Shown: positions 4,511 to 43,512 of the stretch, piece by piece
How the letters are laid out: every line of letters starts with the position of its first letter
How positions within the stretch are numbered: the stretch's first letter is position 1
Virus record (IMG/VR): IMGVR_UViG_3300017919_000016
Location: 1 to 64,000 of that record
From: a virus
Taxonomy: Duplodnaviria > Caudoviricetes
Strand: one strand, 5' to 3'
Length of the DNA: 64,000 nucleotides
The notes under the pieces: generated by a model
The model's database searches: none
Seen by the model: only the letters and a program-made list of their open reading frames with translations
What the model was told of the DNA's origin: nothing
Made by a program: the position numbers and the translations under genes

Positions 4511-5759
4511 CTACATGTAATCTTTACGGTCAGCGCTGATGCTCCATTTAATGCCGCATTTAAAATGGAAATCGACTTGATGATTGTCATGCACCACACC
4601 TTTTTCAATGGTCTTTACAAAAATATCTTCTCGAAAGCCATCGTCATCACTCAAGTCATCCAAACTTTCAATGAACTCTTCTAAATGTTTCTTTATAAAT
4701 ATGCTTTCGCTTTCCATCTTGCTTAAATTCTCATACTCGAGCTGAATGATCTCTTGCTCATAAATCATATGTCGCATTGTTGCATCATATACTGGATCAC
4801 TTGTAGCTGATTCTCTCGCCGCCAAATCACTGATTCTGTTAGTGATGTGTTCAAGCTTCGTCTCTAGTTCGACCAGTTTTTCCTGCTCCGCTTCTGTAAG
4901 GGCATAATCTTCACTGGCGAGTCGCGCTTCACGGATCACTTCATCACGATCATCATTCATCTCTTGGAGAATCTTCATGAAGGCTTTCTCCAATACTTCT
5001 TCCCATACATAACTCGCATTACATTTGATGCCTTTGTCTATATCCCTATGTGCTGCTACCCTGCAGTGCCATGTTGTAAAGTGATATTTTTCACCATTTT
5101 TTGATGAGGTCATTCGTCTGCGTGTAACGGGTCTGCCACATTTCCCGCAAAACAACATATTGGAAAATACGGATTTCCCGCTATAGGTCATCCTATACTT
5201 CTTTTCGGGATTTCTTAGTAGATCGTTTCTTCTTATGAGCTCCTTTTGAACCTTATCCCAATCCTCTTTTGAGATAATTGCAGGATGGTGATTTTGGATG
5301 TAATATTTCGGTTTGTGGTCTTTATTAGGAACTCTTTTATGGCTTAAAAAGTCTATTGTTACCGTCTTCTGTGCCACGCAATCTCCTGTATATTTTTCTT
5401 GGATCAATATTTTTCGAATTGAATCGCTGGTCCAGGTTTTCTTGCCCCTTGCTGTTAAAACGCCATCTTTCATCAACCCTTTAGCGATCCTTGCTGTTCC
5501 TTTTCCTTCTATAAATTCTCTAAATATCCGCCTCACAACTTCTGCTTCTTTTTCTAGAATAACAATCTTCCCATCTTCATTCGTATCGTATCCTAGAAAG
5601 TATGTGGTTGGTATATGAGGCTTACCTTGAGAGAAACGCTTTGTTACACCCCAGGTAGCATTCATGCTTAATGATTTTGATTCTTCCTGCGCGAGGGAGC
5701 TTAAAATTGTCAAAAATAGCTCTGATTTTGAGTCGAGTGTGTCCAAATTTTCCTTCTCG
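4511..5759 (-). pseudogene. 5'-truncated LSR-B lacking the catalytic N-terminus
   Basis: Matches 17908-19575 from EKENLDTLDSKSEL onward; homology stops at 5758-5759; no YxRVS motif and no SD. Confidence 0.9.
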
Positions 5760-5777
5760 CCTCGAATCTAAAAGGAT
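5758..5777. other. Putative recombination junction J1 (CG-cct-CGAATCTA-aaa-GGAT)
   Basis: Coincides with loss of LSR-B homology; same spacing as J2 and J3. Confidence 0.7.
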
Positions 5778-6370
5778 AAAAAGGAAACCCAATACACAGA
5801 AAAATGTCAAGAAATACTCTGTTTTGACCAGTAATTCTAGGATTTCGAAGTCTATAACGCAAAAAAAAGCCCACCACATTGTGATGAGCTGTAAAATTGA
5901 TCTATATATACGCTCTCAGAGCGATTTATACTTATCTGAATGAATCTTGGTTCATCTGAAATATGCTGAGTCTAATATACGACGTCTCATTATTTAATGC
6001 AAAACCATGAAAAGTCCACGCCTGAACTATACTATACTTCACTGGCAGATCGTTGCTTTTCAATTCTAATAAAACGAGTTTCTTCTATTATATATGTATT
6101 TATTCTGGCGGCTCTCATCCTAAACGATAATCTGTCCCGAGACATGAATTTTTGAAGGGTCACTGAAAAAACGACGCTTCAGTTTGCCCTGTAACGGATT
6201 TTAATTGATTTTATGACCCGTAGTTCCACCCATGGGCTAATTCCCTGAAATTGGCCACAAAAGCGATTTAGTCATTTGGGGCTTTAAAAAGCAAATAACC
6301 CACCAATATTCAGTCTAAGTTCGGTACTTTCCGAGCCTAGATGCCTTCATGGTGGGTTTCTTCATTTATA
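5760..6370. other. Conserved non-coding element-end module, copy 1
   Basis: Shares AGCCCA..TGAGCT hairpin (5868-5890), CGCTCTCAGAGCGATTT, CGTCTCATTA, CGCTTCAGTTTG.CCTGT.ACGG, GACCCGTAGTTC and long hairpin 6297-6358 with 43495-44173; partly shared with 13079-13543. Confidence 0.8.
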
Positions 6371-7330
6371 TTATCTAGTTTTCCATAATGCCATTGGGTG
6401 ATTTCTAATTCGTTCAATAATCTTCGCATCTTCAAAGAGTAGTTCTGGAACGTATTCTCCGCCTTCAAACTTATTCAGGAATTCCTTTTCTTCCTTCGTC
6501 AAAACCATCAGATCAGAAATGTACTCTTTAACAAGTTTCTTAGCCGACTCCAATTCAAAATCATCTTTTGTTTTAATGACAGGATTGAGATCTGTCTTAA
6601 TCTTCCTCTTAGTAATTGAGTCAATGCCTTTGGTATCAAAGGTCTTGTTTATACTGTTTTTATCTCTCGCTGATATGGCTGCATAGAATACAACGCACTT
6701 TCTCAGCATTTCCTCTTCCGATTCATCAAAGAGACCATAGTGAATCATATTTCTTGAATCATACAAATCCCTGGCTGCAGCTCTGCTTAGTAGCGCATTC
6801 ATCTTACTTCCGTATATCTCAAGTGGAGCTAGAGACTTCACCTTATACTCACTGGAAAAATGTTCAGTTATAATCGGTCTTTCTTCCGCTTCGAGAACGT
6901 GGGACCGTAATGAGTAATTGACTTCAATCTTGATATTATCCTTATTCCCGCTGGCTCCTATGTAGTCATAGACCCATGAGTCCAAGCTATGAGGATTCTT
7001 CGTCTTGGGATTTTTTGAATAACCCTGGGACACCATATAGCGATCAATAGTACTGTTAATGACCTCTCTACTTTCAAGCATTTCTTCTTTACTGTTGGTG
7101 ATTAAATAATCCAAATCTATATCTACAGAAAGACGTGGCAAGTTGAAAATCGTAAGATTAATTGCTGTGCCACCTTTTAATGCAAGACTATCTTTAAGAA
7201 TTGGATTTGTATTTAAATACTCCAGAATATCTGCTAGCCTCGTTACCTTTTCTAATGTATCCCTCACAAATCCTAATTCTTCAGCTTTTTTCCCTAAATA
7301 TATAATGTCGTAATTAGACAAGTATATCAC
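6371..7330 (-). CDS. abiEii: AbiEii/AbiGii-family nucleotidyltransferase toxin (type IV TA / abortive infection)
   Basis: LKGGTAINL..PRLSVDIDL nucleotidyltransferase motif and K..ALLSR..ARDLYD motif; overlaps the upstream antitoxin. Confidence 0.88.
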   Translation of the reverse strand: MIYLSNYDIIYLGKKAEELGFVRDTLEKVTRLADILEYLNTNPILKDSLALKGGTAINLTIFNLPRLSVDIDLDYLITNSKEEMLESREVINSTIDRYMVSQGYSKNPKTKNPHSLDSWVYDYIGASGNKDNIKIEVNYSLRSHVLEAEERPIITEHFSSEYKVKSLAPLEIYGSKMNALLSRAAARDLYDSRNMIHYGLFDESEEEMLRKCVVFYAAISARDKNSINKTFDTKGIDSITKRKIKTDLNPVIKTKDDFELESAKKLVKEYISDLMVLTKEEKEFLNKFEGGEYVPELLFEDAKIIERIRNHPMALWKTR

Positions 7331-8081: not shown

Positions 8082-8096
8082 TTATCTCACCTCTCT

Positions 8097-8407: not shown

Positions 8408-11400
8408 CTACTTTTTTACCGAATAATATTTCTGCAGCCTACTTGTTGGCTTATCCGGTATTGTTTCCTTAATAATTCCTTTTTCTAAAAGTGGCTTCAC
8501 GATAAACTTCTTAAAATTAGGATTTGTCAAATACCTTGGAAGATACTCACGCATTTCTGTTATTGTCTTCGGCTCTTCACAATATTTTAGTAAAGCCTTC
8601 ACTTCAGGCCCCTTTAAAAACTCTTTCTTTTCCAATTGCGTCTTTGCTTTTTTTCTACGCCTCTCCTGTTCTTGAAAGTCTTTATAGTTTATTGGTGCCT
8701 TCCACTCAAAACCAGAATGGAACAGATAAATAATCTGACCATCTTCTAGAATGGTCCCTTTTTCTATAAATTTTTCAAAAATTTCTCTTTTAAAATCAGG
8801 TGAGCTTTTGTAATATCCTAAATCATCATTCCCTTTATTTTTATAGGCTTCAAGATTCTTTCTAAGTTCTTCAATTTCTTTTGCTACTTCTTCCAGTTGT
8901 TCTTCACGAGCCGTATAACCTAGTAGTTTCTCTCTTATATCCATAATCTCATCAGTCAAATAATCAATAAGCTTTGCATCTTTACCTGCTTTCCCCAGCT
9001 CATCCTCTACAGCTTTGTATAACTGTTGATTTAACGCTTCTTTCTTCTGCTCTAGCTGTTCTCTTTGTATTTCTTCTTCTGGTGTAATCTTTAAAGCCTC
9101 CATAAATAAATCCAAGTACTCATCAAATGCAGGATTAAATTTTATATCCATTAGGACTTGAGAGAAGTTTTCTTCTACATAGTTTTGATTCAAATGAATA
9201 GAACCACAATGGCCTTTTAACCCCTTATTACACCGCCACCATCTCTTTTCATAACTCTTCATTTGTCTGTTAATTCCTCTTACATAGCCGACGACGGTTC
9301 CACATTCACCACAATATAGTTTCTTAGTAAAGGCATCATTCTTTTCCTTGTCCACTGGATATTTTTGAAAATTTTCTTTTCTGCTTTTTTCATTTTCTTC
9401 TAACATAGTTTGAACTCTTTTCCACTGCTCCCCATTAATAATTCCTTTATGATGACCTTCAATGAAATACATGGGCAGTTCTCCTGTGTTCTTCACCCGA
9501 TCGCTGGTTAAACTAAAGCCTGAATGAAATCTTTGATATATATAGTTTCCTCTGTAAATCTCAGAGCTTAATATCCTCCTAATGGTGCTCACCTGCCACA
9601 TCTTTTGTCCACCTGGTGTGGGAATAGACTCTTCTGTAAGCGTATTAGCTATCTCTCTCATGTTTTTTCCTTTTTCATAGTCATCATAGATCAGCTTCAC
9701 TACTTTTGCTTCTTCATCGTTTATTACCCATTCTTTATTTTTATCGTACTCATAACCGTAGCCTTGAACCGCAGGTCTTACAATACCTCTTTGGGCCAAA
9801 CTTTTTCTACCCCAGGCAATAGCTTCACCAATATTGACACTTTCCTCCTGTCCCAGTGCTGATAACAGATTAATCAAGACATTGCTTTTTTCAGAAAGAC
9901 TCAAAATATTTTCACGCTCGAACCACACTTCGACCTTTGGATCTAGACTTTTCAACATGTTTAAGTAGGTTAATGTATCGACAGTATTTCTAGCAAATCT
10001 AGAAATTGATTTTGTAATAATCAAGTCCACTTTTCCCTCTTTACAATCTTCCATCAGGCGCTTGAACTCATGCCTACCTTCAGTCGTTCTCCCGCTTTTT
10101 CCGTCATCTATATAGATATCAGCTAAGATATACCGTGGATCCTTGAGGATAAGGTACAGATAATATGAATATTGAGTTTTGATACTTGTTTTTTGCTGTT
10201 CCAGTTCTGTTGAAACTCGTACATATGCAGCTACTTTTAATTTCTTTTCTCTTACCACAGGTACACTCGTCTGCATGATCACAGAATTACTAAGTTGTTT
10301 TTGTATATTTTTAACCATCAAATTAGGCTCAAGTTTTCTTTCTGCTATCATCTTTCTGTCCTCCTCACCTACAGTATTTAAATCACCCCCTTTCTCCGAG
10401 GCGATTTGGATGTTTGTCATCAATTCAAAATTAGTGGCTTTTTGAACCACTAAATCCCCATTTGGATGCAACTCTGATAACGACTCTTCTATGTTTGGTT
10501 TTATGGGTATGCAGTTACCTATTTCTGTCTCTTTACCATCAATCCAATAAATTTTATAATCTTCTTTTGAGTAAATGACCATGGAGAGAATCCACGCCCG
10601 TAAGTATTCAATAGTGGCTTTCCCTTCAAATTCTTCAAATGTTTTAATATTCTCAAGCCACTTTATGGAATCAAGACGATACTTCCTATCATCTTCTATT
10701 TCTACTAGCCGGTTCTCAAACTTATCATAATCCCTTTCCATTTGAATGATATCATCATCTGTAAATTGAATATCTTTCAACCTTTTAGCCAATTGAATCT
10801 GTGTCAAGGCCTTAAGGCGATGAAACTCAAAGTAGTCATTCTTATTTATTCTAATCAACATTCTTCTAAGCATTTTAATCAATTTTGGATCTTGAGTATC
10901 AAAGCGTACTCTAAAAGCTTTTAGCATTATTTCAAGCATCAAGTCTTCCCGTATAGTCGGTGAGCTGCAGAGGTTTTTGTTTGTTATTGCCGAGACGCAC
11001 CTGAAATACTCCCATGGTTTATTTCTATTTCTTCTAAAATTCTGACCGCAGTTGCCACAGTGAATCCGCCTTGATAACGGATTGGGTCTAATTTGTTGAG
11101 GTTTAGTTTCCCTTTTGTTCTTGCTTCTCTCTTCTTGTACCCGGTCAAAGACTTCCTGACTTATAATCGCTGGATGGTGGTTCTCAATTAAATATTGATC
11201 CCGTATCCCTTCTGAAGACCGTCTTTTGTTGCTCATCAAATCTCTTGTAAGTTTCCTGGTCTTTGCGTTTCCTGTATAGGCAATGTTTGATAAGATTGAT
11301 GCTATCGTCTTCGGTCCCCACAGTTCCTTCCCAAAGTAGGTCCTGACTCCTCTAATGGTTAATTCACCTGCAATGGCATTATTACTCATACCATCAAGAT

Positions 11401-12055
11401 GCATTTGATAAATCTGTCTAACAACTTGTGCTTGCTCTTCATTGATTGTAATGACGGTCTCATTACCAACTTTTGTTTTATCATAGCCGTATGTGTGTCC
11501 GATATTAACCTTGCCTTTCATCATTCGTTTTTCATGTCCCCACTCTATCGCCTGGGAAGTTGCCTCAATCTCCCCTTGAGCAATGCTGGCATAGGTTTTT
11601 AGAAGATAGGCTGTTTCACTCCTAGTGCTCGTAATATTTTCCGCTTCAAAATATACCGCTACGTTTATTTCTTTTAATCGTTCAATGACTTCAATAAGCT
11701 CTTTCGTGTTTCTTGAAAACCGGGATACATTTTTGACTAAGATTAGGTCAATTCTATGCTCTTCACAGTGTCTGAGCATCCGAGTGAAGCCTCGTCTTAA
11801 TGATGCTTTTCTCCCGGTAACCAGATTATCAAAATAGATACCAACAAAGGTCCAGTTGTCCCTACTATTAATCACATGGGTATAGTGACTTACTTGGCTT
11901 TCCAATGAGTGGGACAGTCCCAGTGAATCAAGACTCACTCTACAATAGGCGGCTACCTTGATTCCCTCTCGCTTACTGTGAAGTGGACTGTCCTCTATCT
12001 TTTCTAAAGGATCCCATAATTTATTGATCCATAAGCTTTTATCTATTTGGTCCAT
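8408..12055 (-). CDS. LSR-C: tandem double large serine recombinase with C-terminal winged helix
   Basis: AAYCRVS and AAYVRVS units, two zinc ribbons; start placed at ATG 12055 after SD AAAGGAG. Confidence 0.92.
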   Translation of the reverse strand: MDQIDKSLWINKLWDPLEKIEDSPLHSKREGIKVAAYCRVSLDSLGLSHSLESQVSHYTHVINSRDNWTFVGIYFDNLVTGRKASLRRGFTRMLRHCEEHRIDLILVKNVSRFSRNTKELIEVIERLKEINVAVYFEAENITSTRSETAYLLKTYASIAQGEIEATSQAIEWGHEKRMMKGKVNIGHTYGYDKTKVGNETVITINEEQAQVVRQIYQMHLDGMSNNAIAGELTIRGVRTYFGKELWGPKTIASILSNIAYTGNAKTRKLTRDLMSNKRRSSEGIRDQYLIENHHPAIISQEVFDRVQEERSKNKRETKPQQIRPNPLSRRIHCGNCGQNFRRNRNKPWEYFRCVSAITNKNLCSSPTIREDLMLEIMLKAFRVRFDTQDPKLIKMLRRMLIRINKNDYFEFHRLKALTQIQLAKRLKDIQFTDDDIIQMERDYDKFENRLVEIEDDRKYRLDSIKWLENIKTFEEFEGKATIEYLRAWILSMVIYSKEDYKIYWIDGKETEIGNCIPIKPNIEESLSELHPNGDLVVQKATNFELMTNIQIASEKGGDLNTVGEEDRKMIAERKLEPNLMVKNIQKQLSNSVIMQTSVPVVREKKLKVAAYVRVSTELEQQKTSIKTQYSYYLYLILKDPRYILADIYIDDGKSGRTTEGRHEFKRLMEDCKEGKVDLIITKSISRFARNTVDTLTYLNMLKSLDPKVEVWFERENILSLSEKSNVLINLLSALGQEESVNIGEAIAWGRKSLAQRGIVRPAVQGYGYEYDKNKEWVINDEEAKVVKLIYDDYEKGKNMREIANTLTEESIPTPGGQKMWQVSTIRRILSSEIYRGNYIYQRFHSGFSLTSDRVKNTGELPMYFIEGHHKGIINGEQWKRVQTMLEENEKSRKENFQKYPVDKEKNDAFTKKLYCGECGTVVGYVRGINRQMKSYEKRWWRCNKGLKGHCGSIHLNQNYVEENFSQVLMDIKFNPAFDEYLDLFMEALKITPEEEIQREQLEQKKEALNQQLYKAVEDELGKAGKDAKLIDYLTDEIMDIREKLLGYTAREEQLEEVAKEIEELRKNLEAYKNKGNDDLGYYKSSPDFKREIFEKFIEKGTILEDGQIIYLFHSGFEWKAPINYKDFQEQERRRKKAKTQLEKKEFLKGPEVKALLKYCEEPKTITEMREYLPRYLTNPNFKKFIVKPLLEKGIIKETIPDKPTSRLQKYYSVKK

Positions 12056-12152
12056 TAAAAAAAACTCCTTTCCTCTGAAAGATTGCGCTTGCTTGTATGT
12101 TTGCATTGGTGTCAAACTATTGCAAGTACAATCTCCATACGGTAAAGGAGTA
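12056..12152 (-). promoter_or_regulatory. LSR-C leader (TTGCAA-N17-AAACAT; anti-SD ACTCCTTT)
   Basis: Minus-strand ACTCCTTT can pair with SD AAAGGAGT; conserved GTACTTGCA. Confidence 0.55.
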
Positions 12153-12185: not shown

Positions 12186-13078
12186 CTAGTCGTTCTTCCC
12201 ACGTCTCCAGCCTTGAGCCATTCTTATGACTCCACATTTAAAGATAAACTCAATCTCATAGTCCTTGTGGAGAATACCTCTTTCAACAAGCTTTTTAAAT
12301 TCTGCTGCATCAAAGGTTTCAAAGCTACTTTGGCTTTCAAGATATGTTATTAAAGCTTCTAGGTTCTGCCTCATGTAGATTTCTTCGTCCTGGCTTTTGA
12401 CAAGCGCTTCATGTTCCTGCTGGTAAATTTGTGATTCATAAATCATATTTCTAAGGGTTGCATCATAGATGGGGTCATTAGTGACACTTTCTCTCATGGC
12501 CATTTCACTTATACGATCATTGATTCGATCGATGATTTCTTCAAGCTCTTTAAGCCTTTCTTTTTCATCGTATGTTAAGCTCACATCCTCAATGGCCGCT
12601 TCACCCTCAGCTCTTATGAGATCAATCTCCTCAGTCATTTTCAGAAGCATTTCATTGTAGGCTGCTTCAATAACCTCTTCCCAAACATACTTTGAATGGC
12701 AGTCAAAGTCTGCTTCTACTTTTTGAGCCGCCAGTCTACAGTGCCAAACGGTAAACTTGTAGGGCTTCCCATCTCGCCTTGATGTGATGCGCCTTCTATG
12801 AACCGGCATGCCACACTCCCCACAATAGAGCATATTCGAAAATGGTGCCTTTCCGCTATAGGTTCTATGGTATTTCCCGTCAGGATCATGCTTCATTTTT
12901 CTTCTTCTTTCCAGTTCCTTTTGTACATAATTCCATTCCTCTTCAGAGATGATTGCAGGGTGATTATTCCGGATAAAGTACTGCGGCTTGTGGTTCTTAT
13001 TTCTGACCCGTTTGTGAGTTAAGGGGTCCAGGGTTACTGACTTCTGACATAACGCATGTCCACAAAATTTCTCATTCG
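12186..13078 (-). pseudogene. 5'-truncated LSR-B (zinc ribbon and coiled-coil half only)
   Basis: Homologous to LSR-B from NEK.G..L.QK.VT onward; upstream part of the track ORF is AT-rich end-module DNA. Confidence 0.88.
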
Positions 13079-13096
13079 AAGTGATACGATTTGGAT
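13077..13096. other. Putative recombination junction J2 (CG-aag-TGATACGA-ttt-GGAT)
   Basis: At the LSR-B truncation point; same spacing as J1 and J3. Confidence 0.7.
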
Positions 13097-13734: not shown

Positions 13735-13822
13735 TCTGATCACCCCTTTGCTATTATGATTTGCTTTCCTCACTACATTCACATTATCATATGCAGTGGG
13801 ACAATTCAAAATTTCTTAAGTT

Positions 13823-16800
13823 TCAACTTTCCGTATAGTACTTCTGATCATGGCTGTAGATAAACTCAGGAATCGTACGCTTTAGTCTCCCCATCTCAAC
13901 CAGTGGATTGATTATCGTTGTCCTGAAATGTTCAATTGTCAAAGTGTCCCCCATGAATGCTAACATCTCATGGCTAGTTCTAGGTGTTCTACAATACTTC
14001 ATAAGCTTTTTAATTTCAGGCCCATTTAAAAAATCTAGTCTCTTCAAGAAGTTCTCAAGCTTTCTTCGCTTGGTGATGAGCTTTTGATAATTCTCATAGG
14101 TTATTGGTGCGGACCATTCAAGTCCGACTTTCAGCGTGAATGTAATTGTCCCATCTCTATAGATTATGCCAGATTCTATTAATCTTTCAAATAAGTCTTT
14201 GTTAAAGCTCGCTTCTTCTACCTTAAGACCCGTCTCTAAAACCTTTGACGGAAGTAGTGATTTTCCGTACCTGGTTTGATCGAACCCTTGAAAATTCGCT
14301 CTTCTCTTCTTTCCTAAAAGATCCTGAAGTTTGCAGCTATTAAAGAACCACTCCATTTCTGATTGTAGATGTAGTTGCCGCTCTCTTTTCTCTGTATAGA
14401 ATTTCAGTTGTTCCTGTATTGCCACAATCTTGCTCGTAAGCATATCAATCCGCTGGGAGTCTCTGCCCTTTTTGTTAAGCTCGTCATCTACCGCTTCGTA
14501 AAGTTTTTGATACAGTGCATCCATTTCATCGATTAGTTGTTTTTCCATGCTCAGTTCTTCTTCACTTATCTCAAGCTCATCTATTTTCTTTTCATAGTAT
14601 GTTTTGAATTCTGGATTTGATACCATTTCAACCAGCAGATGCTGAAAATTGATTTCCAGGTATTCTTGATTGAACTGTTTAGCATCACATACCTGAAGCA
14701 TATTCTGCAGGCCATAGCCGCATCGCCAAAATAATGTCGCGCTTGATTTTTCTTTGGTCCTTTTTCTCTCAATTTCACCTGTTTCATCGTCACGCTTTTG
14801 AACTCGTTTTTTATTCATATATCGTCCAAAACCTACTGTGCTACCGCACTCTCCACACTTGAATTTATCGGTAAACACTTCATTTTTTACTTCTTTTTTT
14901 TCAAAACTCAGATGAACTCTTTTCATGCTCTTTTGTCGATCAGCTCTCATTTGCTGCACTTCATCCCATACGTCCTTCTCAATAATAGCTGGGTGATGAT
15001 CTTCAATATGAATCATGGGAATTTCTCCCCGGTTTGGTACAAGTGGTTGCTTGCGTTCTGGATTTTTATATTTTTGATTGTGAATGTAATCCCCTTTGTA
15101 AACGACATTCACCAGGATATTTTGAATGGAAGAGTTGCTCCAAAGTCCTGAACCACTTGGCGGAACGATTCTCTCGTCATTAAGACTTTTATAGATATCT
15201 GTTCGTCTCACCCCATTCAAGTAATCCGTATAAATGCGCCTAACAATGGCAGCTTCCTCTTCTTTGATGACCCACTCTTTCTTCTCGTTGTATTCATACC
15301 CATAGTTAAGCCTTCTTGGCCTGACTATCCCTCTACTTGCTAGCGCTCGTTTACCCCAGGAGATGGAACTTCCTATATTTCTACTCTCTTGCTGCGCTAA
15401 GGCTCCCATCAGGCTGACCATCAGCTCACTGGTATCGTCTTCTGTTGAAATATTTTCTTTTTCGAAAAATATATAGGTCGGTGACTCTAACTCTCTCAAA
15501 ACCCTTACATACTTAATCGCATCCAAAGTATTCCGACTAAACCGTGACAATGATTTTGTCAGGATCAAATCTATTTTTCCTGCTTTGCAGTCACTGATCA
15601 TTCTATTGAAGCCTTCTCGGTGCTTTGTTGAAGTTCCAGTGATACCTTCATCTACATAGATGCCAGCAAACTGATACTTAGGATTTTTAAGGATGGAGTA
15701 GGTATAAAAAGCGATTTGGGTTTTTAGACTTGTTTCTTGCTCTTCTTTATCCGTTGACACTCGAACGTAGGCAGCGACCTTCAGCTTCTTTTTAGTCTCA
15801 ATCTTTAGGTGATTATTGTCTTTTACGTTTTTATAGATGCGACTCATCAACTGCATATGTTGCTGATGATCGATCTGTGTTACTTGAGGTAATGCCACAT
15901 CGGTTTCCTCCTCTCTGTCATATTTTTCGATGACTTCATCAAGATGAAGATGCTCTGTTTTTTCTAAAGGATTAATTTTAGTATCTGATTCAAATGACGC
16001 TCTTGATATTAAGTTTTCTGTAGTTAGTGCTTTAGTATCTCGTTCATTGTCATGTATTGCTTCAGACCCAGAAATTAGTTCCACTTTTTTCTCTCTTGAT
16101 TTTCGGAAATCCTCAGCTTTACTTTTGCATAGCTCAACATCACCCATTTGAGTTTCACTTCCATTAATCCAGTGAACAATAAAATCTTCATATGAATAAA
16201 TAGTCACAGAAACAATCCAGGCTCTCATGAGCTCCAATGTTAACTCTGTTAAGAACGCCACCGAATCCTTTCCTTCTCTAAGCCAGTCAAGAGCCATGTC
16301 CCGGTACTTCCTATCATCCTCTATCTGATTGATTTTCTCTTCAAATTCTCCATATTGCTTACGCATATCCTCTACATCTTCTATAGTAAATCGGGACCCT
16401 ACCAAATGTTCAGCAATCTCAATTTCTGTTAAATATTTAAGCCGATGAAACTCAAAGTGGTCATTCTTATTGACCCTCTCTAATATTTTCTCCAGCTCAT
16501 TGACAGTTCTATCACTTCCAAAATCAAACCATTCTTCAAAACCGCTTTGAAGGATATCGCGCATAACTTCTTCTCTGATATAATTTGTAGGGCACAGCTC
16601 CTTATGCCCCACACGTAACTTGCATCCCCAATACGCTGCTTTCACTCGGTCTGTTGTTCGATAATGGATATTTCCACAGTAGCCACAAATAATTCGTCCT
16701 GCAAAAGGGCTGATTGTCTTTTTTGAAGCTGTCGTTTTATTTGGTCTGTTTTTCTCAATGAGTTTTTGCACTTTCTCGAAGGTTTTCAAATCAATAATGG

Positions 16801-17752
16801 GTGGGTTTGCATTTTCAATTAGAATCTTATCTCTCATACCCTCTGATGACCTAACCCTGTTTGTCATAAGATCCTTATTTGTCGTTCTACCAATGTAATT
16901 CCCTGTGTAAATCGGCAGGGTTAAAATCTGTTTAACTGTTGAAATATTCCATGTATCCAGTCCTCTAGGAGTCTTGTTGCTGCTAAAGGTCAGGGCTTTC
17001 ATGATTTCTGTCTGAGATTTGCCGTTGAGGTATTCTCTGTAAATCCACCTAACAACTTTTGCTTCTTCTTTGATAATTCTAAGCTTCGAGCGCCCTGAAC
17101 CTTTAACCAGTTCATACCCATAGGTCTTCTGGAAATAAGGCCTCCCACTTAGTAGTCTTTGTTCCACACCCCACTTTCCTAGTTCTGACATAGCTTCTAT
17201 CTCAGCTTGCGATAGGCTTCCGTAGGTTGATAATAAAAATGCATTATAATCAATGGACGTGTCAATCCGCTCTTTCTCGAAATACACCCCTACTCCGTGT
17301 TCTTTTAACTCTTCGACAGCTTCTAGCAACTCCTTCGTATTCCTGGAAAACCGCTGCACATTTTTTGTAATGATTAGATCCAGCTTGCCTTCTTCAGCAT
17401 GACGGAGCATTCTTCTGAAACTTCGTCTATCCTTTATTGTCCTACCAGAAATATTATCATCAAAGTAGATACCGACAAATTTCCAATTAGGTTTACTGCG
17501 AATTAGTTCTGTATAATGACTCATCTGATTTTGAAGCGATCGACTTTTTTTATTTGGAGTAGGACTCACTCTACAATAAGCCGCTACCCTTACTTCATCA
17601 TCCGTTTTCTCAAGCGGACTTTTCCTCTTTTCATCTAAAGGGTTCCATAATGTTTGAACCCACTGCATCTTATCATTGGGATTCATCTTTTCAATTTCAT
17701 CCAATTGATAACCGGTTGTTTTATTTAAAGTATCATCTGATCTTTTGCCCAT
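13823..17752 (-). CDS. LSR-C: tandem double large serine recombinase with C-terminal winged helix
   Basis: Close paralogue of 409-4347; two catalytic units. Confidence 0.92.
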   Translation of the reverse strand: MGKRSDDTLNKTTGYQLDEIEKMNPNDKMQWVQTLWNPLDEKRKSPLEKTDDEVRVAAYCRVSPTPNKKSRSLQNQMSHYTELIRSKPNWKFVGIYFDDNISGRTIKDRRSFRRMLRHAEEGKLDLIITKNVQRFSRNTKELLEAVEELKEHGVGVYFEKERIDTSIDYNAFLLSTYGSLSQAEIEAMSELGKWGVEQRLLSGRPYFQKTYGYELVKGSGRSKLRIIKEEAKVVRWIYREYLNGKSQTEIMKALTFSSNKTPRGLDTWNISTVKQILTLPIYTGNYIGRTTNKDLMTNRVRSSEGMRDKILIENANPPIIDLKTFEKVQKLIEKNRPNKTTASKKTISPFAGRIICGYCGNIHYRTTDRVKAAYWGCKLRVGHKELCPTNYIREEVMRDILQSGFEEWFDFGSDRTVNELEKILERVNKNDHFEFHRLKYLTEIEIAEHLVGSRFTIEDVEDMRKQYGEFEEKINQIEDDRKYRDMALDWLREGKDSVAFLTELTLELMRAWIVSVTIYSYEDFIVHWINGSETQMGDVELCKSKAEDFRKSREKKVELISGSEAIHDNERDTKALTTENLISRASFESDTKINPLEKTEHLHLDEVIEKYDREEETDVALPQVTQIDHQQHMQLMSRIYKNVKDNNHLKIETKKKLKVAAYVRVSTDKEEQETSLKTQIAFYTYSILKNPKYQFAGIYVDEGITGTSTKHREGFNRMISDCKAGKIDLILTKSLSRFSRNTLDAIKYVRVLRELESPTYIFFEKENISTEDDTSELMVSLMGALAQQESRNIGSSISWGKRALASRGIVRPRRLNYGYEYNEKKEWVIKEEEAAIVRRIYTDYLNGVRRTDIYKSLNDERIVPPSGSGLWSNSSIQNILVNVVYKGDYIHNQKYKNPERKQPLVPNRGEIPMIHIEDHHPAIIEKDVWDEVQQMRADRQKSMKRVHLSFEKKEVKNEVFTDKFKCGECGSTVGFGRYMNKKRVQKRDDETGEIERKRTKEKSSATLFWRCGYGLQNMLQVCDAKQFNQEYLEINFQHLLVEMVSNPEFKTYYEKKIDELEISEEELSMEKQLIDEMDALYQKLYEAVDDELNKKGRDSQRIDMLTSKIVAIQEQLKFYTEKRERQLHLQSEMEWFFNSCKLQDLLGKKRRANFQGFDQTRYGKSLLPSKVLETGLKVEEASFNKDLFERLIESGIIYRDGTITFTLKVGLEWSAPITYENYQKLITKRRKLENFLKRLDFLNGPEIKKLMKYCRTPRTSHEMLAFMGDTLTIEHFRTTIINPLVEMGRLKRTIPEFIYSHDQKYYTES

Positions 17753-17852
17753 AGAAAAAACTCCTCTCTTTGTAGTGGCATACTCAGTTACTAGGTATGT
17801 TCACTCTGTACAGGATATAATGCAAGTACTATATCCTAATTGAGGGAGTTTT
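17753..17852 (-). promoter_or_regulatory. LSR-C leader (promoter-like motif plus anti-SD)
   Basis: Near-identical to 4348-4447. Confidence 0.6.
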
Positions 17853-17907
17853 TATCTTTCTATGAAAAGCCTCTGTTATTTAGACGCTTATTTTCAGTAT
17901 TTGTTAT

Positions 17908-19575
17908 CTACAAGTATTCTTTACGATCAGCGCTTATGCTCCTTTTGATACCGCATTTAAAATGGAAATCGACTTGGTGGTTGTCATGCACGATACCTTT
18001 TTCAATGGTCTTTACAAAAATATCTTCTCGAAAGCTATCGTCATCGCTTAAGTCACTCAAACTCTCAATGAACTCTTCTAACTGTTTCTTTATAAAAATA
18101 CTTTCAGTTTCCATCTTGCTTAAGTTTTCATACTCAAGCTGAATGATTTCTTGTTCGTAAATCATGTGTCGCATAGTTGCGTCATATACAGGATCACTTG
18201 TCGCTGATTCTCTAGCTGCCAAATCACTGATTCGATTTGTAATATGTTCAAGTTTCGTTTCAAGTTCGATTAGTTTTTCTTTCTCAGATTCTGTAAGTGC
18301 ATAGTCCTCACTGGCAAGTCGCGCTTCTCGAATCACTTCATCACGATCTTCATTCATCTCATGGAGAATCTTCATAAATGCTTTTTCTAATACCTCTTCC
18401 CATACATAACTCGCATTACATTTAATGCCTTTGTCTATATCTCTGTGGGCTGCCACTCTGCAGTGCCATGTTGTGAAGTGGTACTTTTCTCCATTTTTAG
18501 ATGAAGTCATTCGCCTGCGTGTTACAGGTCTGCCACATTTCCCGCAAAACAACATATTGGAGAATACGGATTTCCCGCTATATGTCATCTTATATTTTCT
18601 CTCGGGATTTCTTAGCATATCGTTTCTTCTTATGAGTTCCTTTTGTACCTTATCCCAATCTTCTTTTGAGATAATTGCAGGATGGTGATTTTGAATGTAA
18701 TATTTCGGTTTATGGTCTTTGTTTGGAACTCTTTTATGGCTTAAAAAATCTATTGTTACCGTCTTTTGAGCCACACAGTCCCCTGTATATTTTTCTTGGA
18801 TTAATATTTTTCGAATAGAATCACTGGTCCAGGTTTTCTTACCTCTTGCTGTTAAAACACCATCTTTCATCAACCCCTTAGCAATCCTTGCTGTCCCCTT
18901 CCCTTCTAAAAATTCTCTAAATATTCGCCTTACAACTTTTGCTTCTTTTTCTAGAATAACAATCTTCCCATCTTCATCCGTATCGTATCCTAGAAAGTAT
19001 GTGGTTGGAATATGGGGTTTCCCTTGAGAGAAACGCTTCGTCACACCCCAGGTAGCATTCATGCTCAATGATTTTGATTCTTCCTGGGCTAGGGAACTTA
19101 AAATCGTCAAAAATAGTTCTGATTTCGAATCAAGTGTGTCCAAGTTTTCCTTCTCAAAAAATACGCCGACCTGGGGATCTAAGTTCTTCAATAACCTTAC
19201 ATAACTTAAACAATCAAGGGTGTTTCTAGCGAATCGACTGATGGATTTTGTTAGAATGTAGTCTATTTTTCCTGCTTTGGCATCTTCAATCATTTCAAGA
19301 AATCCCGTTCTGTTCTTTGTATTTGTACCCGTAATCCCTTCATCCGTGTAGATCTTATAAAGCTCCCACGCTGGGTTTTTATTTATATAGTCCGTATAAT
19401 ATGAAACCTGAAGTTCATAAGAGGACGCTTGGTGTTCGAGCAAAGTCGATACACGCGCATAGGCCGCAATCCTTTTTTTGCGTCCATCATGATGTTCATC
19501 ACTTCTTCCCGTCCTGCTGACTACTGGAATAATGCGGACTTTTGGGTTCATGCTTGTTGATAGATTCGTTTGCAT
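17908..19575 (-). CDS. LSR-B: large serine recombinase
   Basis: AAYARVS, TKSISRFARN, recombinase domain, CGKCG zinc ribbon, coiled coil. Confidence 0.93.
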   Translation of the reverse strand: MQTNLSTSMNPKVRIIPVVSRTGRSDEHHDGRKKRIAAYARVSTLLEHQASSYELQVSYYTDYINKNPAWELYKIYTDEGITGTNTKNRTGFLEMIEDAKAGKIDYILTKSISRFARNTLDCLSYVRLLKNLDPQVGVFFEKENLDTLDSKSELFLTILSSLAQEESKSLSMNATWGVTKRFSQGKPHIPTTYFLGYDTDEDGKIVILEKEAKVVRRIFREFLEGKGTARIAKGLMKDGVLTARGKKTWTSDSIRKILIQEKYTGDCVAQKTVTIDFLSHKRVPNKDHKPKYYIQNHHPAIISKEDWDKVQKELIRRNDMLRNPERKYKMTYSGKSVFSNMLFCGKCGRPVTRRRMTSSKNGEKYHFTTWHCRVAAHRDIDKGIKCNASYVWEEVLEKAFMKILHEMNEDRDEVIREARLASEDYALTESEKEKLIELETKLEHITNRISDLAARESATSDPVYDATMRHMIYEQEIIQLEYENLSKMETESIFIKKQLEEFIESLSDLSDDDSFREDIFVKTIEKGIVHDNHQVDFHFKCGIKRSISADRKEYL

Positions 19576-19577
19576 AA

Positions 19578-21218
19578 TCAGCCTTCTCCTTTCTCAATTT
19601 TCACTTCTTTTAGATCTCCATTCGCCCAATATAAAAGCAGCGTTCCTTTGTCTGTATAAGTCATTCTGATAAACCATGCTCTTAGAAACCTAGTATCCTC
19701 AGATAATTTATTCATCCCTTGCACAATTTTGGTTCCGCTTTTTATTTTTTCTAATGACTTTATAGCTTCTTCCCTGTACTCAGCATCCTTATCGATAAAC
19801 TCCCATAGATGCCTTTTAGATTCTAATTGTTTCTCAAGTTGAGTTCGTTGTTCTTTGAATGTTGACTCATCACGAAGTTCCATAATCGCTCTATTTTCAT
19901 CCACCAAAGCTTTTTCTAAAGACAGTCTCAGCCAACTTTGCTCTGACTCTCGATTTAACTCAATATTCTTAAGCTCTTTGATTAAATGTATGACAAGTTT
20001 TTTGTTTACATTGGTGCCACCATCCAGATACTTCCTAGTGAACTCTCTTTTTAGAGTCCTCACAATATCTAGTTCATCAATCGCTTCCATTTCGCAAAGT
20101 AATTTACTCTTAAGACTGCTCGAACATCTCCATAATACTTTCCTTCTGCCCGCATATCGATGGTAGTTCTTCCCGCAGCACCCACACTTGATTCTGCTAG
20201 TAAACTCATTTACGCTCTTTTTCTTTCTATCGTATGTGACTGATTTTTTCTCAAGAATTCTCTGCACTCTGTCAAAGATTTTCCTGTCAACAATTGGTTC
20301 ATGATGATTGCTTATATAATACTGCGGTCTTTCTCCATTGTTTATTTTGGTTTGATGTGTTAGATAATCTTTTGTGTAAGTCTTTTGGCAAAGAGCATCA
20401 CCAACATAACGTTCGTTGCTCAAAATACTTTTGATATTTGAATCTTTCCAGTCGATACGACCATTTGGTTTTTTATAACCTTTACTTATAAATTTTCTGG
20501 CTATATTGACCAGGCTGTAGCCTTCCAAATACAAGTCGTAAGTCTCCCTCACAATCTTTGCTTCCTCTAAATCAATGGTCCAGGGAACACCGTTCACTTT
20601 TTTATAACCTAGAATTCTTGTGAATAAAGGCTTTCCACTTGAAAACCTTTTTGTATGAGCCCAGGTTAGATTTTCTGAAATCATTCTGCTTTCTTCTTGC
20701 GCGACTACCGATAACAGGGTCAGAATAAATTCACTCTCCATACTTCCTGTATCAACAGATTCCTTCTCAAAGATGACCCTAATTCCATTTTCTTTGAGCA
20801 CTCTAATTGCTTCTAATGTGTCCATTACATTTCTCGCAAATCTCGAGATAGACTTACATAAAATTAAATCAATATTTCCTTCCAGGGCATGGCGCATCAT
20901 CTTATTGAATCCCGCCCTATGGGACCTTTTAGTTCCAGACTTGCCCCTGTCAGAGTAGATGCCCACAAACATCCAGTCAGAGTTATTTCTAATGTAGTTT
21001 GTGTAATGAATTGTTTGATTTTCAAGGGAGTTCATTTGAATTTCTTCTTCTGTACTCACTCGGCAATACGCACAAACTCTCAGTCTTTTAGGTTCTTCCT
21101 TAATATTTGATGCTGTTGATGCTCCTTGAGTTTTCATTCCAATTTCAATGACTTGTCTCTCTTGGGATTGGAAATCAATGCTGTCATAAAATCCACTTTC
21201 ATACAACGATCCAGTCAT
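19578..21218 (-). CDS. LSR-A: large serine recombinase
   Basis: CAYCRVS, CKSISRFARN, CGCCG; start placed at ATG 21218 after SD AAGGAGGG. Confidence 0.92.
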   Translation of the reverse strand: MTGSLYESGFYDSIDFQSQERQVIEIGMKTQGASTASNIKEEPKRLRVCAYCRVSTEEEIQMNSLENQTIHYTNYIRNNSDWMFVGIYSDRGKSGTKRSHRAGFNKMMRHALEGNIDLILCKSISRFARNVMDTLEAIRVLKENGIRVIFEKESVDTGSMESEFILTLLSVVAQEESRMISENLTWAHTKRFSSGKPLFTRILGYKKVNGVPWTIDLEEAKIVRETYDLYLEGYSLVNIARKFISKGYKKPNGRIDWKDSNIKSILSNERYVGDALCQKTYTKDYLTHQTKINNGERPQYYISNHHEPIVDRKIFDRVQRILEKKSVTYDRKKKSVNEFTSRIKCGCCGKNYHRYAGRRKVLWRCSSSLKSKLLCEMEAIDELDIVRTLKREFTRKYLDGGTNVNKKLVIHLIKELKNIELNRESEQSWLRLSLEKALVDENRAIMELRDESTFKEQRTQLEKQLESKRHLWEFIDKDAEYREEAIKSLEKIKSGTKIVQGMNKLSEDTRFLRAWFIRMTYTDKGTLLLYWANGDLKEVKIEKGEG

Positions 21219-21293
21219 ATTCGCCCTCCTTCCTTTATCCTTTTTCAAGCTGACGGCCTTTTTGTTTATCAATCAAACTCTTTAAAATATAAA

Positions 21294-33002: not shown

Positions 33003-33004
33003 GC

Positions 33005-41347: not shown

Positions 41348-41367
41348 AGGCGTCTCCTCCTTTCAAA

Positions 41368-41880: not shown

Positions 41881-41941
41881 AACTTTCACCTCCTTCATTT
41901 ACTGCAAAGAAAAAGAGCCATTTTTCAGGCTCCAAATGTTA

Positions 41942-42157
41942 TTAATTCACTTTGTTTATGTCGACTTTAATTTCTTCAACTGCCCATCCTGTGAAGTCTT
42001 TGAACCATTCCTTTGAAAACTTCTCTGCCATCTCTTCGGTGTCCCAGTAGCACGCTTCGTCAAAATCAAAGGTCCATTTTGGGTGGCCATCCCACATGCT
42101 GAGGTATAGCTTCTTACCCGCTTTCGTTTGCATCGTTACCGTGTAGAAAATCTCCAT
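41942..42157 (-). CDS. Hypothetical protein
   Basis: SD AAGGAGG, upstream promoter-like motif, downstream hairpin. Confidence 0.6.
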   Translation of the reverse strand: MEIFYTVTMQTKAGKKLYLSMWDGHPKWTFDFDEACYWDTEEMAEKFSKEWFKDFTGWAVEEIKVDINKVN

Positions 42158-42188
42158 TCCTTTCGCCTCCTTCGTTTTGGTATATACA

Positions 42189-42217
42189 TATATCACTCTG
42201 AAGGCAAAATTAGTCAA
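42189..42217 (-). promoter_or_regulatory. Element promoter-like motif TTGACT-N17-GATATA
   Basis: Same AGTGATATAT motif and spacing as 21343-21371 and 53534-53562. Confidence 0.55.
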
Positions 42218-42220
42218 GGA

Positions 42221-42430
42221 TTACTTCCCACGGATTCCTTTATAATTAAAGTTCCCTTTTCGAATCTCTTCATGATCTGCTTCTACAGCTCTTTTGTATT
42301 CAGGGTCTTTTGTTTCCTTCTCTTTGCAACTCATGCAGATGCACTGCTCATTGAACATGGACATAATACGTCCACCTTCTAAGATGCCACCGCAGCGGTC
42401 ACAATATTTCTGACTAAAAAATCGTTCCAT
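42221..42430 (-). CDS. Small CxxC zinc-finger-like phage protein
   Basis: CDRCG and CMSC; SD GGAGG. Confidence 0.7.
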   Translation of the reverse strand: MERFFSQKYCDRCGGILEGGRIMSMFNEQCICMSCKEKETKDPEYKRAVEADHEEIRKGNFNYKGIRGK

Positions 42431-42443
42431 CTATCTGCACCTC

Positions 42444-42632
42444 CTACTCTATGTCTACATATTCCATCAACATGGCCAGGGCCTCATCATAACTATTGGC
42501 TTCCTTGGTGACTCGCCTAATCATTTCATCTGCCTTTTCAGGCTCCCCAGATTTCTTTAGGGTTCTTGATACAATCCCCATGAGATTAAAGATGTTACCG
42601 TTCTCTCCAATGAGTCTGCATTTAGGTTTCAT
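42444..42632 (-). CDS. Hypothetical phage protein
   Basis: L.GENGNIFNLMG motif; overlaps the upstream gene end. Confidence 0.7.
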   Translation of the reverse strand: MKPKCRLIGENGNIFNLMGIVSRTLKKSGEPEKADEMIRRVTKEANSYDEALAMLMEYVDIE

Positions 42633-43446
42633 CGACTTCATCAACCTTTCTGAATGCACCGTTTCCTTCTAGGTGCTTAAGAAGTGTCTTTCTGGTTTCC
42701 TTATATTCCGGACCATTCATCCCGATACGGATTAGCCAGGTTCTAAGGGCATACTTGGGATTATCATCCTGTGCCTGTTTAAAGGATGCGCGGTTTAAGG
42801 TTCTGGCATAGTTCGCTATGAGAACACATAAATCCTGAAATGCTTTGATTTTTTCTGGAGTAAGTTCTGCTTCTAAAAGCCAGAAGCTAAAGGTCCTCTC
42901 TTCAAAATCAATCTGAAATCCTGGACATCTCTCGGCCCCTAGTGTTTCAATGGCAGCTCCCAATCCCTCTAAACCCTCTATGTTCTCATTGTTTAAATCT
43001 TCAGCAAAGCCTTCATCCATAAAAGGTTGTTCTGTTTTAAATGCCATCATGATCAGTCGCTGCTTGCTGTAAAGCATGTTGATGATGTTCTTAAGGCTTG
43101 TAGCTGTGTGGTCTTTCATATCCATCTTAAGTTCAAGTCCATCTAGATCCTGAAGCGATGGACTCAAGGTTTCTCTACTATTTGTTTCTTGCTCTGCTTG
43201 CAGCTGTTCACGTTCATCTGAAGTTGATTCTTCCCTTACTTCAGTCGGCTCTTCTATCACAGGTTGACTTAGAATTTCTTCCATAGTGATGAGCTCACCA
43301 TCTCCCTTTGTAATAGCACCATGTCTGTCGATGGTATACACTTCATTCGCTGTCCTAATTTCGTAATTAAAGGTTGGAACACTTAAGTACTTAGGTTTCA
43401 CGCCCAAATGCTCTCCTAGCTTTTTAATCATTAATTTTCGGTCCAT
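42622..43446 (-). CDS. Conserved clostridial prophage protein (often labelled 'virulence-related protein')
   Basis: NPKYALRTWLIRIG..G.EYK..RK.LL..L.G..AF C-terminal motif. Confidence 0.7.
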   Translation of the reverse strand: MDRKLMIKKLGEHLGVKPKYLSVPTFNYEIRTANEVYTIDRHGAITKGDGELITMEEILSQPVIEEPTEVREESTSDEREQLQAEQETNSRETLSPSLQDLDGLELKMDMKDHTATSLKNIINMLYSKQRLIMMAFKTEQPFMDEGFAEDLNNENIEGLEGLGAAIETLGAERCPGFQIDFEERTFSFWLLEAELTPEKIKAFQDLCVLIANYARTLNRASFKQAQDDNPKYALRTWLIRIGMNGPEYKETRKTLLKHLEGNGAFRKVDEVDET

Positions 43447-43492
43447 TTTCATACCTCCCTGCGTTTTTGGTACTTACATATATCACTCTAAA

Positions 43493-43512
43493 CGCCATGA
43501 TACGAGAAGGAT
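43493..43512. other. Putative recombination junction J3 (CG-cca-TGATACGA-gaa-GGAT)
   Basis: Cuts through a promoter-like motif (AGAGTGATATAT kept, TTG box missing); same spacing as J1 and J2. Confidence 0.7.

Follow-up and report, generated by a model that had tools for sequence, protein, structure and literature searches.

Three sites in the 64,000-nucleotide window (the whole stretch of DNA that was analysed, part of a 92-kb contig) are probably att arms on the recombinase side of a stack of four related temperate phages or their remnants, whose ends join either a primary chromosomal site or secondary sites by exchange at a G and the A or T that follows it.

The contig is highly repetitive. 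Self-comparison matches positions 404-5758 with 13818-19155 (87%) and 41905-43488 with 70243-71809, and the contig holds many repeats that are 80-95% identical. Terminase, portal, capsid, tail, holin and endolysin genes indicate a tailed phage and not a conjugative element. The structural genes are 80-87% identical to those of a Heliusvirales phage, and the stacked elements are close to Ca. Heliusvirales phage PV036459.1. A prophage of Anaerotalea alkaliphila encodes a recombinase B with 97% identity to that of element 2. The module of each element consists of two genes for single large serine recombinases, A and B, and a double-length gene, C, encoding two full units. Elements 2 and 3 have intact modules, and elements 0 and 1 have remnants:

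409..4347, minus strand: double-length recombinase C of element 0 (remnant)
4511..5758, minus strand: truncated recombinase B of element 0, C-terminal 411 aa (residues 145-555 of the intact 555-aa paralog), cut at F/EKENLD
8408..12115, minus strand: double-length recombinase C of element 1 (remnant)
12186..13077, minus strand: truncated recombinase B of element 1, C-terminal part, cut just before NEKFCG and beginning at about residue 256 of intact B
13823..21272, minus strand: intact recombinase module of element 2 (A 19578-21272, B 17908-19575, double-length C 13823-17752)
46544..53404, minus strand: intact recombinase module of element 3 (A 51776-53404, B 50094-51776, double-length C 46544-49918)

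The Pfam domains PF00239, PF07508 and PF13408 are present in A, B and both halves of C, and the truncated B copies lack PF00239. The catalytic serine motif Y-x-R-V-S appears as AAYARVST in the translation of element 2 B, the only unit read for it. The window recombinases have no match to DUF4368 at E<=0.001. Besides elements 2 and 3, PV036459.1 and five other records also have the three genes co-oriented in the order A-B-C. PV036459.1 is the only GenBank phage with the double recombinase, and the end module has no match among GenBank phages. Large serine recombinases are the only recombinases in these phage-sized elements, in agreement with an earlier sequence-only reading of this DNA, which had proposed att-like ends of phage-sized elements. 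We infer, only from the position of the genes, that A, B and C catalyse the joints described here. An AbiE toxin-antitoxin cargo lies at 6371-8081, alongside the recombinase C remnant of element 1.

The motif CG-N3-YGAWWCKA-N3-GGAT matches the plus strand at 5758, 13077 and 43493 and nowhere else in the window, compared with a mean of 0.00 matches over 100 dinucleotide-preserving shuffles; the fixed-spacing CG...GGAT motif noticed earlier is therefore real, and its sequences were quoted correctly. In the orientation of the element, the conserved arm of 20 nt reads ATCC-N3-NNGWWTCR-N3-CG, then target, and is accompanied by a terminator and an outward TTGACA-like box. The junctions and their neighbours are as follows:

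5758..5777, minus strand: J1 end arm of element 1, ATCC TTT TAGATTCG AGG CG, then truncated recombinase B of element 0
13077..13096, minus strand: J2 end arm of element 2, ATCC AAA TCGTATCA CTT CG, then truncated recombinase B of element 1
43493..43512, minus strand: J3 end arm of element 3, ATCC TTC TCGTATCA TGG CG, then the spacer of a promoter-like motif of element 2
43470..43492, minus strand: -10-side half of the promoter-like motif, TTTA GAGTGATATATGTAAGTAC, upstream of a 276-aa gene; the CTTG (-35-like) half is missing
5861..5892, minus strand: terminator-like hairpin inside the end of element 1 (read directly, not folded)
about 13179-13214 and about 43614-43648: equivalent terminator-like hairpins (read directly, not folded)

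All three motif copies sit exactly where homology to an uninterrupted allele ends. At J1, the truncated B (4511-5758) matches the intact B of the next element (17908-19575) up to C5758, and the break falls between the F and E codons of FFEKENLD. At J2, the match to intact B genes ends just before the AAT GAG AAA (NEK) codons, and in the nearest intact alleles (96% identical) the base facing C13077 is A instead of G. At J3, the interrupted feature is the promoter-like motif CTTG-N17-GAGTGATATATGTA, of which this contig and PV036459.1 hold five intact copies. These carry, about 17 nt upstream, the CTTG that the J3 copy has lost, whereas its GAGTGATATATG half is retained. The proposal that each CG coincides with the break of an independent feature was thus exact to the base at all three junctions, except that the J2 break sits one base further left than the other two. 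The shared CAAAWTTTC at -14 to -6 of J1 and J2 was also confirmed by direct reading. The A/T-run and hairpin terminators lie roughly 105-155 bp inside each end.

The same end, followed by a target, was found at 40 distinct junctions in public contigs, among them genomes of Anaerotalea, Desulfitispora and Youngiibacter, MAGs from Clostridia, and contigs from IMG/VR and JGI. Those IMG/VR relatives that were checked proved to be proviruses or linear fragments. The spacing is kept in these homologous ends. Across ten arm subtypes, the final dinucleotide of the arm is CG at 39 junctions and TG at one, and the next base is A at 32 and T at 8, but never G or C. The J1 arm recurs in identical form at 19 other junctions. 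The idea of multiple targets is upheld by arm TAGATTCGAGG, which is found at 19 junctions on at least six kinds of target. The J2 arm type occurs at the same NEKFCG position at two further junctions, in Anaerotalea and a Clostridiales MAG. The 20-nt J3 arm also occurs unchanged in IMG/VR contig 3300029182_000058 and in Desulfitispora, where this promoter motif, upstream of recombinase A, is again the target. Truncated copies of B or C follow the end arm in five other records, from Anaerotalea C15, a Clostridiales MAG and IMG/VR proviruses.

The targets form a small, recurrent and discrete set, mostly in recombinase genes of relatives, and the earlier description of a relaxed target is too loose. 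The primary chromosomal site, CG/ACGTGAGTATGGTGAAAGGATAA, lies upstream of a polysaccharide sugar-transferase gene, which is followed by other polysaccharide genes. It is used by arms of the J1 kind, and not by the J2 or J3 arm types. Eight distinct occupied forms were found, along with six unoccupied copies, all of which read CGACGTGAGTATGG and have divergent left flanks. An Rfam search of the primary site matched no family. The att sites of phage large serine integrases are short, imperfect inverted repeats; in the end arm of the present phages, TTATCC is located 14 nt before the CG, and in the primary site GGATAA is located 17 nt after it. The secondary sites are four positions within serine-recombinase genes of resident relatives and encode conserved motifs, with F/E(K/R)E corresponding to J1 and /NEKFCG to J2. 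The J3 arm type targets the spacer of the promoter motif that is repeated in these phages, and the remaining targets are several single cases. One junction in Desulfitispora interrupts a UDP-glucose dehydrogenase gene.

The far junction was not recovered in the records searched, nor was an attP: no record has the end arm preceding, and co-oriented with, genes of the far side. A single match at one far-region locus lay downstream on the opposite strand and was taken as chance. A 24-nt tandem repeat at 90,900-90,950 of the contig was considered as the far end of element 3, with a GTT overlap, and was rejected because related phages in Youngiibacter and Anaerotalea are linked to the genes that lie beyond it; the contig stops short of the true far end of this element. 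Exact-pattern scans of IMG/VR with the J3 arm, the supposed far arm, the host left flank and the last gene of the contig returned nothing. In three genomes, far-side homology stops at an epimerase gene, with no common arm at the breakpoints.

The search for the missing N-terminal halves of recombinase B, suggested by the sequence-only reading, yielded no N-terminal recombinase fragments ending at the target positions. One N-terminal recombinase fragment in a MAG breaks at another position. In the Desulfitispora assembly, a search for the N-terminal half of the interrupted UDP-glucose dehydrogenase found only a full-length paralog. Since neither kind of N-terminal part was recovered, simple insertion is not demonstrated. 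The stacks may have originated by serial entry into the recombinase module of a resident, or by deletion up to it. In either case, recombinase remnants would pile up downstream of the newest phage, and the recombinase gene of the resident would be inactivated.

A pure deletion origin of the secondary junctions is unlikely. Here, the end arm of the new phage would recombine within the molecule with a look-alike site downstream, in a recombinase gene of the resident or in a host gene, and the intervening DNA would be removed to leave C-terminal remnants. The absence of N-terminal partners fits this explanation, since the stacks in six records hold only C-terminal recombinase remnants, and the N-terminal part of the dehydrogenase was not found in the Desulfitispora genome. 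In Anaerotalea, the Clostridiales MAG and Desulfitispora, moreover, a single epimerase gene borders one phage far region in all three, and stacks are seen on the near side. However, element 2 retains a complete late region beside element 3 in the window, a pattern that is also predicted by insertion followed by slow loss through homologous recombination, and the assemblies are fragmented. In addition, we know of no reaction of large serine recombinases between an attR-type site and a third site.

As judged from alignment with intact alleles, the CG is part of the phage end, and most targets do not have it as a common core. An intact allele that is identical over 200 nt beside the break has AA at the position of the CG. 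At the F/EKE site, two intact alleles, 100% (over 122 nt) and 94% identical, both have TG, and the other closest intact alleles have GC (99.5%), CA (97.5%) and AA (96%). Among intact recombinase units, CG is present in 33% at the J1 site, in 2/125 at site 2 and in 0/56 at the J2 site (site 3); of the targets, the primary chromosomal site alone carries CG (6/6 unoccupied copies). Site-1 junctions in recombinase genes have C in 13/14 cases, compared with 33% of 172 intact units (P ~5e-6, our own arithmetic). This enrichment, together with the TG of the closest alleles, argues that the C is phage-borne. The G is common to phage end and target at the primary site, at site 1 (where it begins a Glu/Asp codon, GA-), at J3 (the counterparts in PV036459.1 and G003 read TG/TTTAGAG) and at two single targets. 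The primary site and its junction have CGA in common; secondary sites do not share the CG and only partly share the G.

These comparisons bear on the proposal of the sequence-only reading that a palindromic CG is the crossover core in the element and in every target, as part of a relaxed-target, TnpX-like system. Such a reading is tempting but wrong on the present evidence, and is corrected here; we consider it quite improbable. It would account for the CG at 39/40 junctions across ten arm subtypes and in all six unoccupied primary sites, and the excess of C at site-1 junctions could reflect selection of CG-bearing alleles. Against it stand the closest intact alleles at secondary sites and the near absence of CG at sites 2 and 3. 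The sequence-only reading had itself named uninterrupted targets lacking CG as grounds for refutation, and this is what the secondary sites show. Furthermore, a palindromic core cannot set polarity in the known large serine recombinases, as established for phiC31 and Bxb1.

Under the preferred account of a primary site, secondary sites and a G+W exchange, the C of the CG would be the last base of the phage arm, and strand exchange would more likely take place at the G together with the base after it (GA or GT). This dinucleotide is inferred from one side of the junction, because neither a far junction nor an attP was recovered. On the plus strand it would correspond to TC at 5757-5758 and 13076-13077, and to AC at 43492-43493. 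In known large serine recombinases the two-base crossover dinucleotide is the same in attP and attB and is not palindromic; the proposed dinucleotide is likewise non-palindromic. At sites 0, 2 and 3 (8 junctions), the first base of the core would be mismatched, since the intact alleles have A or C where the junctions have G. With standard serine-recombinase chemistry, about half of the products of a mismatched core are expected to carry the base of the target. All eight junctions keep the G, which counts against a G+W exchange. After arm subtypes GAGAATCAAGG and GCGAATCGTGG, moreover, the next base is either A or T depending on the target, which also counts against it.

An origin of the junctions as assembly chimeras, or by homologous recombination among recombinase paralogs, is highly improbable. 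The many 80-95% identical repeats in the contig can mislead assemblers, but the same base-exact joints between arm and target recur in independently assembled isolates and metagenomes, and the 40 distinct junctions exclude chimeras as their source. Nor is the arm homologous to the recombinase genes beside it.

It is tempting to speculate that integration follows a two-tier programme, although we hold this only tentatively. The phage would use the leader of the polysaccharide operon if it is free. If a relative is already there, it would join its end to DNA for conserved catalytic-domain motifs of the resident's serine recombinases, of which any resident has four copies, thus disabling or erasing a competitor and producing the stacks found in many genomes. 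A one-base core mismatch would be tolerated with the phage base always kept, and the four different recombinase units might divide the target classes between them.

The temperate phages of this family, found in anaerobic Clostridia, allow an integration end to be traced base by base over dozens of independent events, and the set of junctions is a natural catalogue of targets for a multi-subunit serine-recombinase module. If true, repeated use of sites within recombinase genes of relatives already in residence would amount to competition between prophages of a kind for which no description was found in the literature searched, and would explain the stacks of remnants beside these prophages. One long primary site with a few defined secondary sites, and any tolerance of core mismatches, would also be of interest for genome engineering.

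Several known systems resemble this one in part. Phage large serine integrases (phiC31, Bxb1, A118, SPbeta SprA) have the same Resolvase, Recombinase and zinc-ribbon domains; in both cases the genes occupy one extremity of a temperate phage whose end is short and exact to the base, and integration within genes is possible. In contrast to their single gene, there are three genes and four units here, one gene being a covalent double; the same arm is found at many targets, and the target base in the presumed core is sometimes mismatched.

Streptococcal integrative conjugative elements carry three adjacent, co-oriented serine integrase genes at their extremity, and their insertion disrupts genes including traG of another mobile element, with secondary sites noted (Ambroset et al. 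2016, PMC4701971). The number, orientation and location of the genes, the gene disruption and the secondary sites are all similar to the present case. Conjugative elements with such modules are flanked by direct repeats of 2-8 bp. However, the present modules are carried by tailed phages, their third gene consists of two fused units, and recombinase genes of relatives are the preferred secondary targets, which gives rise to stacks.

TnpX and TndX (Tn4451, Tn5397) and the multi-targeting clade of Durrant et al. 2022 (PMC10083194), in which DUF4368 is common, are likewise serine recombinases with several targets. TnpX/TndX have GA at both element ends and in their targets. Arms of the J1 and J2 types (CG/A) would fit a GA at the joint, whereas the J3 arm type would use GT. 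A single recombinase suffices for TnpX/TndX; the present system differs in having several (three genes in each intact module), no detected DUF4368, and few long recurrent sites instead of a loose short motif.

Finally, SCCmec with CcrA/CcrB and composite islands is similar in having more than one serine recombinase per element and successive elements at one locus. In SCC, the chromosomal site is regenerated and further elements accumulate there, whereas each newcomer described here is joined within recombinase genes of the element that preceded it.

The 64-kb window covers the first part of a 91,964 bp virus record, and all of its long genes lie on the minus strand. Self-comparison, together with an all-against-all protein comparison, resolves it into four related elements lying end to end, two of them remnants:

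409-4347, minus: element 0 (remnant), double-length serine recombinase C
4511-5758, minus: element 0, truncated recombinase B
8408-12115, minus: element 1 (remnant), recombinase C; the element also carries AbiE cargo
12186-13077, minus: element 1, truncated recombinase B
13823-21272, minus: element 2, full recombinase module A, B, C
up to 43452: element 2, full lysis, tail, head and terminase region
43493: start of element 3, a complete phage genome running off the contig
46544-53404, minus: element 3, its own A, B, C

Recombinases A and B contain Resolvase, Recombinase and zinc-ribbon domains (Pfam), and each C contains two such sets. PV036459.1, a Ca. Heliusvirales phage from human faeces, matches the structural region at 80-87% identity. 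The element 2 recombinase B shares 97% identity with its counterpart in an Anaerotalea alkaliphila F-3ap prophage. Defence-type cargo (AbiEi/AbiEii pairs, an AAA_21 and RloB pair, a Schlafen AlbA_2 protein and a protein with a Fic-like C-terminal domain) is found near the ends or among late genes, at 6371-8081, 22497-24441, 29779-30480 and 44180-45589.

Three element ends, J1 (5758), J2 (13077) and J3 (43493), had been proposed from the sequence to share a motif at fixed spacing. The window contains exactly three matches to the pattern, where chance predicts 0.00, and each end is the point at which homology to an uninterrupted allele stops. At J1, alignment of the truncated B to its intact counterpart in element 2 extends as far as C5758; the break separates the Phe codon from the Glu codon in FFEKENLD. 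The J2 break lies directly ahead of the NEKFCG codons, and J3 falls in the spacer of a promoter-like motif, CTTG-N17-GAGTGATATATGTA, of which the J3 copy retains the downstream half alone. Read from element to target, the arm (the conserved phage end sequence) has the consensus ATC(C/A)-N3-NNGWWTCR-N3-CG.

GTDB genomes, IMG/VR and JGI metagenomes were scanned with the J1-type arm, leaving the last two bases unconstrained, and fetched records were additionally searched with the general arm pattern. Together, these searches gave 40 distinct junctions, 39 ending in CG and one in TG, and the next base is A or T at every one. The junctions recur in independently assembled isolates (Desulfitispora alkaliphila, Anaerotalea alkaliphila, Youngiibacter fragilis), MAGs and metagenome contigs, which rules out the assembly chimeras considered earlier. 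Across this broad phage family, the arm is conserved.

At eight distinct junctions, all of them of J1-kind arms, the sequence runs on into ACGTGAGTATGGTGAAAGGATAA and from there into a polysaccharide-locus gene for a sugar transferase or an aminotransferase. Arm-free copies of this site in other genomes (n = 6) all read CGACGTGAGTATGG, with left flanks that vary among hosts. The locus is taken here as the primary attachment site for J1-kind arms; among the 40 junctions, it was not seen with J2 or J3 arm types. The site is the beginning of a leader upstream of sugar-transferase genes, extending about 90 nt after CGAC, with copies in host genomes L111, L112, L114, L165, L166 and L168. Most copies, from different Clostridia, keep its first ~50 nt (GTGAGTATGGTGAAAGGATAAAGAG...GTGATATCAAGGGTTT); in some, another motif (...AATGTACTAATGTTACAGAAGCATTACACGT) comes next. 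The leader has no Rfam match and is a candidate cis-regulatory element of polysaccharide operons.

Secondary targets lie largely in recombinase genes. Fourteen junctions fall at site 1, the Phe-Glu/Asp boundary of a conserved F-E-(K/R)-E motif, in differing serine recombinase units (B, or either half of C). Four lie at site 2, ~13 codons downstream; three, J2 among them, at site 3 (NEKFCG); and one at site 0, ~40 codons upstream of site 1. The one TG junction among the 40 is at a site 1 target (Desulfitispora contig G001, 43504-43523), where TG is also the commoner reading in intact alleles. The J3 arm was found three times: twice in the same promoter motif, upstream of a 276-aa gene in the window and of recombinase A in Desulfitispora, and once upstream of a holin gene. 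Single cases involve genes for a UDP-glucose dehydrogenase and a sugar transferase, plus a few genes without identification. In the first of these (G001, 29736-30086), the outermost arm is joined to the last 117 codons. Since the junctions are spread over primary, recombinase-gene, promoter and single targets, the system is multi-target with few recurrent sites. Of the relaxed-target system proposed in the sequence-only reading, the multiplicity of targets therefore stands, but relaxation overstates their range, the targets being few, discrete and recurrent across the 40 junctions.

The same reading took CG as a shared palindromic core. For each junction, the closest uninterrupted allele was sought and the bases at the CG position were read. 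At site 3, these are AA for Anaerotalea (100% identity over 200 nt) and J2 (96%), and GC for a Clostridiales MAG (99.5%). For the site 0 junction, L106, the uninterrupted allele has CA (97.5%), and for three site 2 junctions it has GA, AA or TA (93%). At site 1, the alleles for L161 (100% over 122 nt) and J1 (94%) have TG, and those for several other junctions have CG (80-99%). In intact recombinase units, CG occurs at site 1 in 56/172 (TG in 113/172), at site 2 in 2/125 and at site 3 in 0/56. C is present at 13 of the 14 site 1 junctions versus 33% of intact alleles (chance P ~5e-6, by our own arithmetic). The C is thus supplied by the phage arm. The proposed interpretation holds in part: the ends are att-type and belong to a multi-target serine-recombinase system, but no palindromic CG core is shared. 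Uninterrupted alleles without CG, named beforehand as a refuting observation, are found at secondary sites, although not at the primary site.

The G is common to junction and target at the primary site, at all site 1 targets (as the first base of a GA- codon), at J3, where PV036459.1 and another intact copy read TG|TTTAGAG, and in two single cases. Known large serine recombinases require a non-palindromic dinucleotide for polarity, and TnpX/TndX use GA. Given these precedents, the shared G and the A or T that always follows, the simplest reading would be a crossover core of G+A or G+T, one base targetward of CG. On the plus strand, it would be TC at 5757-5758 and 13076-13077, and AC at 43492-43493. 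Two observations weaken this proposal. At sites 0, 2 and 3 (8 junctions), the target has A or C in place of G and the junction has G in 8/8, where simple strand segregation after mismatched exchange predicts an even split. In addition, for two arm subtypes the following base differs among targets, being A in some and T in others.

Searches that included IMG/VR and GenBank phages found no far junctions or attP. The missing 5' halves, expected elsewhere in the genome, were also sought, and no N-terminal partner of any interrupted gene was found; a Pfam N-terminal domain model did not detect that of the UDP-glucose dehydrogenase elsewhere in the Desulfitispora assembly. The junctions may have arisen by nested insertion, after which homologous recombination removed duplicated DNA; element 2, which keeps its late region intact next to element 3, fits this history. 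Alternatively, a deletion may have extended from the end arm of the newcomer to a similar site within the resident. The missing N-terminal halves are compatible with either.

The far end of element 3 lies beyond the contig. The same epimerase gene of a polysaccharide locus adjoins one phage's far side in each of three genomes (Anaerotalea, a Clostridiales MAG and Desulfitispora), with no common arm visible there. In Anaerotalea alkaliphila contig 42 (L138:2190-2420), about eight ~25-nt repeats of the form CAGATWGGCAGTGATGGTAAC separate a host epimerase gene from the first phage genes of the far side. Outside the window, at contig 90,900-90,950 (L119:6900-6950), a 24-nt unit, TATCCTTTTTAGTCCTAGCTCCCA, occurs as a tandem pair in the regulatory region preceding a 276-aa early gene. 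Both copies share the TTATCC/GGATAA word with the end arms. The pair was rejected as the far end of element 3, and the copies may be operators.

The promoter-like motif interrupted at J3 has five intact copies in this contig and PV036459.1. Its positions are:

43470-43488 and 42180-42198, minus: window
71,791-71,809: contig
14587, 36331 and 37016: PV036459.1

Each phage has up to three copies, which precede the 276-aa gene, a small gene next to it and, in PV036459.1, recombinase A; in this contig, two are in element 2 and one in element 3. The motif is probably a phage-specific promoter class.

Each of four double recombinase ORFs (1124-1312 aa) holds two complete serine-recombinase units in a single frame:

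409-4347, minus
8408-12115, minus
13823-17752, minus
46544-49918, minus

A scan of IMG/VR with their alignment gave >500 related stretches, some of which may be adjoining separate genes; among GenBank phages, the fusion is found in PV036459.1 only. Stacks of truncated recombinase modules resembling those of the window occur in five more records. IMG/VR provirus 2890566355 has at least four partial modules downstream of an intact one, and an Anaerotalea contig has five or more modules.

Serine-integrase triplets have been described at one extremity of streptococcal conjugative elements, which insert in mutT, in hsdM and, in other elements, in traG, with secondary sites noted (PMC4701971). Multi-targeting large serine recombinases are TndX-related and often carry DUF4368 (PMC10083194), whereas the recombinases here have no DUF4368 match. 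The paper defining Ca. Heliusvirales (PMC11283538) discusses neither the recombinases nor their sites. What appears to be new in tailed phages is the combination of a four-unit module that includes a fused double recombinase, a base-exact arm followed across 40 events, a primary site located in the leader of a polysaccharide operon, and secondary joining preferentially inside the recombinase genes of resident relatives.
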